Source: Escherichia phage vB_EcoP_phi315
Direction: 5' to 3' (one strand)
Length of the DNA stretch: 59,532 nt
Sequence record: PV189403.1
The notes under the pieces were generated by a model. That model saw nothing but the letters and a program-made list of their open reading frames with translations. It searched no databases and was not told the origin of the DNA. Each line of letters starts with the position of its first letter. The first letter of the stretch is position 1. This document shows positions 52,623 to 53,152 of this stretch, piece by piece. Position numbers and translations under genes: made by a program.

Positions 52623-53152
52623 TATTTATTTACCAGGCTCGCTTTTGCGGGCTTTTTATTACAGGAAAGACACTGGACAGTGAAATGTTAAATGCCTCAC
52701 AATTCAGGCAGTTGATGATTGTCTGGTTGACGGAGAGTTGTTAAAAAAGTTTTGCATGGTGAATCCCCCTGAGCGGAGGGGCGACTGGTGACGGTATAAT
52801 CTCTGATTATCAAAACGAGAATGACGAGGGTTTAGTGGCACCGGGCTGAACTCACCGGGAGGCACCCGGCACCATGCAATGGCACATAGCGCCACTCTCC
52901 AGCCCCTCTCCGGAGGGGCTTTCTTATGGACAAAAAAGCCCGCGCTGGGAGACGCGGGCGGCAAGGAATAAACAATGAAACGTGAAGTAATATTTCAGCT
53001 GGCGAATAATACCCTATAGTAATCACTCTGCGCAACTGCGCGACCTTTTTCGAATTGCGGGCTGTAGTCTCCCTTCTGCCATTGTCCTGTAACTTCCGGA
53101 CTTCAGCCCGCTCCTTATTTTACTCACAATATTATCCCGGCCGGGAGGATTC

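Follow-up and report, generated by a model that had tools for sequence, protein, structure and literature searches.

The sequence that separates the tRNA genes from nanS-p in Escherichia phage vB_EcoP_phi315, the place where Shiga toxin (Stx) phages carry stxAB, is most likely a stx-free allele of the moron site, composed of a 35-bp junction and a convergent pair of small RNA (sRNA) genes, and lying partly in a patch that was exchanged by homologous recombination between lambdoid phages. We analyzed the whole 59,532-nucleotide stretch of record PV189403.1 (hereafter the window; one strand, 5′ to 3′), for which an earlier note had described this interval as an empty stx slot. The elements of our reading are already in the literature: toxin-free members that are identical at this locus have been published, and the moron-site sRNA pair has been known since 2014.

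As for its backbone, phi315, a short-tailed lambdoid phage, falls in the Stx-phage group (Sepvirinae, Traversvirus-like) and is a previously described toxin-free relative of Stx phages. Genome-wide nucleotide similarity to recognized members places it there, the top matches being the Stx-converting Sepvirinae Stx2 phage 86, phi419, and VT2-Sakai. The Stx2-converting phage 86 is 97.1% identical over 90% of the first 25 kb of the window and 98.6% identical over 82% of the next 25 kb, the stx2a-positive phi419 shows 98.8% identity to the window over 85%, and VT2-Sakai shows 96.1% identity over 90% of the structural half. The window contains neither stxA nor stxB, the two genes that make a phage Stx converting. 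Searches of its whole length by tblastn with Stx2A and Stx2B (from Lyz12581Vzw) and with Stx1A and Stx1B (from the Stx1-converting phage AP005153) returned chance matches only, the best with an E value of 0.49, and blastn with the stx2 cassette returned nothing but chance 12- to 19-mers. The earlier note had taken the phage for a stx-negative relative of Stx phages, and this is borne out, both by the missing toxin genes and by a backbone close to those of phage 86 and phi419; in related phages, stx is indeed found at this position. The stx operon was also reported to be absent from phi315, phi296, and phi367 by the authors who described them (PMC12502783). The latter two phages are 100% identical to the window from 51400 to 55200, with no difference at the tRNA-nanS-p locus, and depart from it in the early region (coverage of 71% and 59%, respectively). 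Within the phage collection, six records match the tRNA-nanS-p interval at ≥99% identity, all of them non-Stx and none named Stx-converting or confirmed as a stx carrier: phi296, phi367, TL-2011a, PPwrbA_EH2201, and PPwrbA_EC3734 at 100%, and Lahn2 at 99.8% over 93% of the interval.

The late region of the window has the architecture of Stx phages, as the earlier note had recognized, with Q, PR′/tR′, the tRNA trio ileZ-argN-argO, the moron site, nanS-p, and then a P21-type holin, endolysin, and Rz, in the order seen in Sakai Sp5 and Lyz12581Vzw. More broadly, the Stx2a phages (Sakai Sp5/VT2-Sakai, the 933W group, Lyz12581Vzw, and Stx2 phage 86) share with the window the backbone, the Q-PR′-tR′ block, a methylase remnant, the tRNA trio, an STnc100-type sRNA, nanS-p, and the lysis cassette, all in unchanged order. 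The antiterminator gene Q (51497-51931, plus strand; Pfam PF06530, E value of 1e-50), which lies upstream of the moron site, as does a NinG gene (Pfam), is of the type found in Stx2 phages. A PR′-like late promoter was picked up as a promoter-like site in a consensus scan (51919-51946, plus), and a tR′-like terminator as a terminator-like site (51976-51997, plus). The sequence from PR′ to tR′ (51919-52003) is identical in Sp5 and Lyz12581Vzw, and 472 of the 473 positions between the 3′ end of Q and the first tRNA (51900-52372) are identical in Sakai Sp5. In Stx1 and Stx2a phages, the PR′-tR′ stretch gives rise to the Hfq-binding sRNA StxS, which activates rpoS (PMC7873438). With 51947-52003 (plus) identical to Sakai Sp5, the toxin-free phage probably still makes StxS. 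Further downstream lies the 3′-end remnant of a DNA methyltransferase gene (52180-52332, plus; a 50-aa ORF), the equivalent of which is annotated as a DNA methylase in Lyz12581Vzw and as a partial pseudogene in O111 strain 11128. At the start of this remnant there is a strong hairpin followed by a T-run (52182-52210, plus; GCCAGCC, a 9-nt loop, GGCTGGC, T6), identical in Stx2a phages, which was missed by our terminator scan because of the length of its loop. Terminator-like hairpins are enriched in the region as a whole, with 7 between 51800 and 53300 vs. 1.4 ± 1.3 in shuffled sequences.

The three tRNA genes, identified by ARAGORN and Rfam, are all on the plus strand and consist of tRNA-Met(cat) (52373-52448), labeled ileZ/tRNA-Ile in RefSeq, tRNA-Arg(tcg) or argN (52456-52532), and tRNA-Arg(tct) or argO (52546-52622). 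Position 37 of argO, beside the anticodon, is an A in the window and in stx-free prophages (CTTCTAAGC) and a G in Lyz12581Vzw (CTTCTGAGC), while argN differs from that Stx2a phage at three positions. On the other side of the moron site, nanS-p (53153-55090, plus) encodes a 645-aa protein with a DUF1737 N terminus, a SASA esterase domain, and a DUF6645 C terminus (Pfam). Its predicted product is a phage sialate O-acetylesterase homologue (9-O-acetyl-sialic acid esterase), and relatives annotate the counterpart as NanS or as a SASA-family esterase. The phage still carries both this gene and the tRNA trio (52373-52622), as had been noted earlier. The leader of nanS-p, with a small hairpin (53029-53042) and the ribosome-binding site GGGAGGA, is 100% identical to Lyz12581Vzw (53029-53152, plus). 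Downstream of nanS-p, Pfam identifies DUF1378 and DUF826 genes ahead of the holin gene, and then the lysis cassette (55794-58012, plus) with a P21-type holin S, lysozyme, Ant, and Rz (PF04971, PF00959, PF10547, and PF03245). An anti-repressor-like gene (P22_AR_N and ORF11CD3; 56822-57391, plus), the second in the window after that of the nin region, is inserted between the endolysin and Rz genes of this cassette.

The interval between the tRNA trio and nanS-p (52623-53152) is exactly 530 bp long. The earlier note was right to place the stx site here, stx2AB lying exactly between argO and nanS-p in Stx2a phages, but the 530 bp as a whole do not constitute an empty slot. The actual slot is a junction of about 35 bp (52662-52696), and most of the rest is occupied by the sRNA dyad and the nanS-p leader. 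Its limits were defined by BLAST against two Stx2a phages, Sakai Sp5 and Lyz12581Vzw, which gave identical boundaries. Homology extends to 52661, the end of a post-tRNA hairpin with its T-run (52635-52661, plus; terminator-like site at 52635-52654), and is found again from 52697. The intervening sequence measures 1338 bp in Lyz12581Vzw, where it comprises the stx2A leader, stx2A, stx2B, and a further 45 nt, compared with 35 bp in the window, TTTATTACAGGAAAGACACYGGACAGTGAAATGTTAAATGCC. The LZHX12 and MLI104K2 prophages, which we call stx-free from their annotation (no STEC label), share this junction at 95-100% identity and have different Q genes and a full-length methyltransferase gene (1059 bp) before the tRNAs. 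Of 5426 complete E. coli genomes, 714 gave a contiguous tRNA-to-sRNA match to a 201-bp probe across argO, the junction, and the start of the sRNA, 30 of the 714 at ≥99% identity, and 56 IMG/VR contigs contain an exact copy of a 39-mer that spans the junction. The stx-free junction is polymorphic: Sp4 (excerpt 869-920) is without 28 nt (ATTACAGGAAAGACACTGGACAGTGAAA) of window 52655-52682, which are present in the LZHX12 and MLI104K2 prophages.

The first sRNA gene, on the plus strand, belongs to the STnc100 family (52726-52931). The Rfam model RF02076 matches it over its full length (positions 1-206 of 206) and scores 158.3 bits, the gathering score being 47 (E value of 5.5e-37). Its predicted fold is also much more stable than that of shuffled sequence (MFE z-score of −3.5). 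The hairpin to which the earlier note had drawn attention is present at 52901-52920 as AGCCCCTC-TCCG-GAGGGGCT, followed by TTCTTAT. In the Rfam alignment, it corresponds to the 3′ helix, our scan marked it as a terminator-like site (52901-52928, plus), and we read it as the Rho-independent terminator of this sRNA. Convergent pairs of Hfq-binding sRNAs at the moron site downstream of PR′ have been described in Sakai Sp3, 4, 5, 9, 10, 11, 15, and 17 (Tree et al. 2014, PMC4104026), the pair in Sp5 consisting of EcOnc27 (plus, about 235/247 nt) and AsxR (minus, 54 nt) (PMC4104026). When we searched Sp5, an STnc100 match of 207.7 bits was found 75 nt after stx2B, followed by AsxR on the opposite strand (88 bits). 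The published Northern probe for EcOnc27 falls in the 3′ part of this match, and that for EcOnc05 falls in the STnc100-type gene of Sp4. The gene in the window shares both family and position with EcOnc27/sRNA103 of Sp5 and EcOnc05 of Sp4.

There is experimental evidence that several of these homologues, EcOnc05 among them, are discrete Hfq-associated RNAs. Northern blot and Hfq crosslinking have both confirmed EcOnc27/sRNA103 (PMC7873438), and EDL933 has 11 STnc100 copies, each with sequencing reads, one of which is Northern-confirmed and some of which show ribosome footprints (PMC5331693). Other STEC are likewise reported to have STnc100 downstream of stx2. By analogy with homologues, whose identity ranges from 65 to 100% between segments, the gene in the window would produce a discrete, Hfq-associated STnc100-type RNA of ~205-230 nt (about 52705/52726-52931). 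Overexpression of sRNA103, the EcOnc27 of Sp5 and the only STnc100 allele with a reported phenotype, raises fimZ and espA transcripts. However, the central region in the window differs from this allele, and Stx2a phages have a different allele of the 5′ half. The targets of the sRNA may therefore differ, since its 5′ half, which probably includes any seed region, is unlike that of every characterized allele. PasD of EPEC, a structural relative of STnc100, resembles it in lying directly upstream of a sialate esterase gene and in ending with a Rho-independent terminator.

A consensus scan identified a candidate sigma-70 promoter for this sRNA (52674-52703, plus; TGGACA, an 18-nt spacer, and CACAAT), the CACAAT box of which is invariant in every aligned allele. 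The candidate straddles the stx point, so that stx would replace its −35 half and the sRNA might then have to come from the stx transcript, by read-through or processing, a scenario that we regard as rather doubtful. If it were true, there would be a mechanistic link between toxin carriage and sRNA regulation, and the sRNA would be expressed differently in stx-free phages and their Stx-positive relatives. Variants in the same region downstream of stx2 were linked to HUS in a machine-learning study.

The second sRNA element is convergent to the first (52932-53096, minus, with an approximate 5′ end), and was recognized by homology to EcOnc08/21/42 of Sakai Sp4 and Sp15, EcOnc42 being the Stx1-phage (Sp15) copy, and by a strong terminator in our scan (52959..52938, minus; GCCCGCG-tctcccag-CGCGGGC followed by T6). 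The window positions equivalent to the EcOnc08 and EcOnc21 Hfq-CRAC peaks of Sp4 are 52933-53005 and 53011-53096, respectively, with few substitutions relative to Sp4; this mapping assumes that the paper and the current record use the same Sakai coordinates, which is supported by the position of the EcOnc05 probe. The EcOnc08/21/42 Northern probe corresponds to 53005-53039, with 30 of 35 bases matching (5 substitutions). The upstream part of the element overlaps the leader and ribosome-binding site of nanS-p (53005-53152). The ~271-nt Northern size of EcOnc08/21/42 implies a start near 53200, where no good promoter was found; the sole weak site (53159..53131) would give an RNA of about 190 nt and was rejected.

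The position of this element is also that of the AsxR/AgvB family, which is convergent to an STnc100-type gene and is defined by a conserved ~42-nt 3′ region, but position is all that the window shares with it. The corresponding Rfam models (RF02703 and RF02702) gave no match at E ≤ 1 in 51500-53600 and none at the gathering threshold in the whole window, while the Sp5 control scored 88 bits, and we rejected this identity in favor of a different sequence family. Stx phages differ among themselves in the convergent partner of the STnc100-type gene, since Lyz12581Vzw has an EcOnc08/42-type partner like the window (100% identical from 52932 onward), whereas the partner in Sp5 is AsxR. The stx-negative lambdoid prophage Sp4 of O157:H7 has the same arrangement as the window, the tRNA trio being directly followed by EcOnc05 (plus), EcOnc08/21 (minus), and a nanS-p homologue. 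In contrast to the window, Sp4 has another allele of the central STnc100, and its tRNA trio is directly preceded by a gene for an AraC-family regulator (ECs_1087) rather than by a Q-PR′-tR′ block and methylase remnant.

When the window is compared with Lyz12581Vzw segment by segment, a mosaic is apparent. Identity is 97.7% before the tRNAs and 97.2% in the tRNA trio (52373-52622), where several of the SNPs agree with stx-free prophage alleles. It then drops to 33% in 52662-52682, 74% in 52683-52725, and 65% in the 5′ half of the STnc100 gene, before rising again to 95% in its 3′ half (52831-52931) and to 100% in 52932-53300. Against Stx2-phage alleles, identity is 65-75% in the ~135-170 bp beside the junction and 99.8-100% in the outer flanks. 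The differences from Stx2 phages are limited to a patch of about 450 bp (52373-52830), which is of the type found in stx-free prophages. A divergent patch between near-identical flanks points to allele exchange by homologous recombination, and we consider it most likely that the stx-free state of the site arose in this way. Crossovers would have taken place in the conserved tRNA cluster on one side and in the conserved 3′ half of the sRNA and nanS-p sequences on the other, the whole central segment being exchanged with or without stx. Whether the lineage lost stx in this manner or never had it, both would be compatible with such an exchange.

An alternative is that the site is ancestral, the backbone having never had stx and Stx2 phages having arisen by insertion of a toxin moron into such backbones. 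The wide distribution of the stx-free junction among genomes and IMG/VR contigs is in its favor, as is the fact that prophages of strains without STEC annotation combine the junction with an intact methyltransferase gene, and the idea of a moron site downstream of PR′ is itself established (PMC4104026). However, a simple insertion would have kept the sequence adjacent to the cassette as similar as the flanks, whereas the divergence is concentrated in 52373-52830. Moreover, the window and Stx2 phages share the derived truncation of the methylase and an essentially identical Q-PR′-tR′ block. We therefore see an ancestral empty site as unlikely, although its probability is not negligible, and it overlaps with the recombination reading, which is compatible with either direction of exchange.

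Another possibility, which we deem very unlikely, is that the interval codes for small proteins rather than RNAs. Short ORFs have been called there by PHANOTATE and in older annotations (three minus-strand "hypothetical proteins" in phi296 and ORF b70 in a Stx1 phage), and the ribosome footprints seen on some EDL933 STnc100 copies (PMC5331693) could be taken in the same sense. The ORFs of the interval gave no Pfam match above threshold, and their sole PHROG match, to phrog_24488 (unknown function), is weak and divided between two reading frames, which indicates that the reading frame is not conserved. These results agree with the earlier note, which had seen no plausible ORF in the 530 bp. Against a coding role, the covariance model accounts for 206 nt at 158 bits, and Hfq-bound RNAs of matching position and size have been documented experimentally in homologues (PMC4104026). 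We thus propose that annotations of the tRNA-nanS-p stretch show an STnc100/EcOnc-type sRNA dyad and a stx-free junction of 35 bp in place of an empty slot or short hypothetical proteins. A 34-aa ORF (52874-52978, plus), with no Shine-Dalgarno sequence and no family match, crosses both convergent terminators and probably occurs by chance; the MLI104K2 allele has an ORF of about 32 aa and different sequence at the same place (hand translation).

The earlier note had also offered that the phage might be a deletion derivative, and a clean deletion, in which a direct descendant of a Stx2 phage lost exactly stxAB and kept an intergenic scar, is already largely refuted; we give it hardly any credence. 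It is true that the boundaries at 52661 and 52697 are the same against two different Stx2a phages and that the outer flanks are 99.8-100% identical to such phages. However, Stx2 phages lack the 35 bp between these boundaries, for which the stx2 cassette offers no significant match, the best Smith-Waterman score against the whole cassette being 12 vs. a null of 10.2 ± 1.3 (P = 0.13). The same 35 bp are common to prophages without STEC annotation that differ in their Q genes and have the full-length methyltransferase, and the next 135 bp or so (up to ~170 bp) are just 65-75% identical to Stx2 alleles. In addition, the six phage records that match the interval at ≥99% are non-Stx, with none that is Stx-named or stx-confirmed. 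A resemblance of GTG AAA TGT TAA in the junction to the ribosome-binding site and first codons of stx2A (ATG AAG TGT) was considered as a possible stx remnant, and was rejected as chance because the best matches lie elsewhere in the cassette, at the same P = 0.13.

Finally, those who described phi296, phi315, and phi367 mention problems of purity and warn that the risk of a chimeric assembly is not zero (PMC12502783), but a chimeric junction assembled from nanopore reads of a phage mixture is refuted at the tRNA-nanS-p locus, and has next to no probability, because O111:H- strain 11128, the chromosome of which is finished, matches this locus at 100% across 971 bp, the same sequence occurs at 100% in about 20 other finished chromosomes, and the independent records TL-2011a, PPwrbA_EH2201, and PPwrbA_EC3734 (100%) and Lahn2 (99.8%) agree.

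Returning to the recombined, stx-free allele that we favor, homologous loci in O157:H7, along with what is established about the control of late genes in lambdoid phages, suggest how it would operate. In the lysogen, each sRNA would be transcribed from its own promoter, end at its own terminator, and act through Hfq on host mRNAs. Upon induction, RNA polymerase modified by Q would proceed from PR′ through tR′, the tRNAs, and both sRNA terminators into nanS-p and the lysis genes, yielding a late transcript without toxin. The mosaic illustrates how stx can be swapped in and out of an otherwise identical phage via recombination in the flanking tRNA and sRNA sequences, which is relevant to the loss and gain of stx in outbreak strains.

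Several other RNA elements were found outside the late region. Rfam matches to c4-a1b1 (50 bits), isrK (78.6 bits), and C4 antisense RNA (74.3 bits) lie in a row at 48429-48624 (plus), just upstream of a 224-aa ORF (48674-49348) that is annotated as the anti-repressor Ant in relatives. Judged by these matches, 48429-49348 is a predicted P1/P7-style C4 immunity module in the nin region. On the minus strand, Rfam matches a lambda cIII thermoregulator element at 39208-39266 (88.5 bits) and sRNA-Xcc1 at 33435-33524 (65.4 bits).
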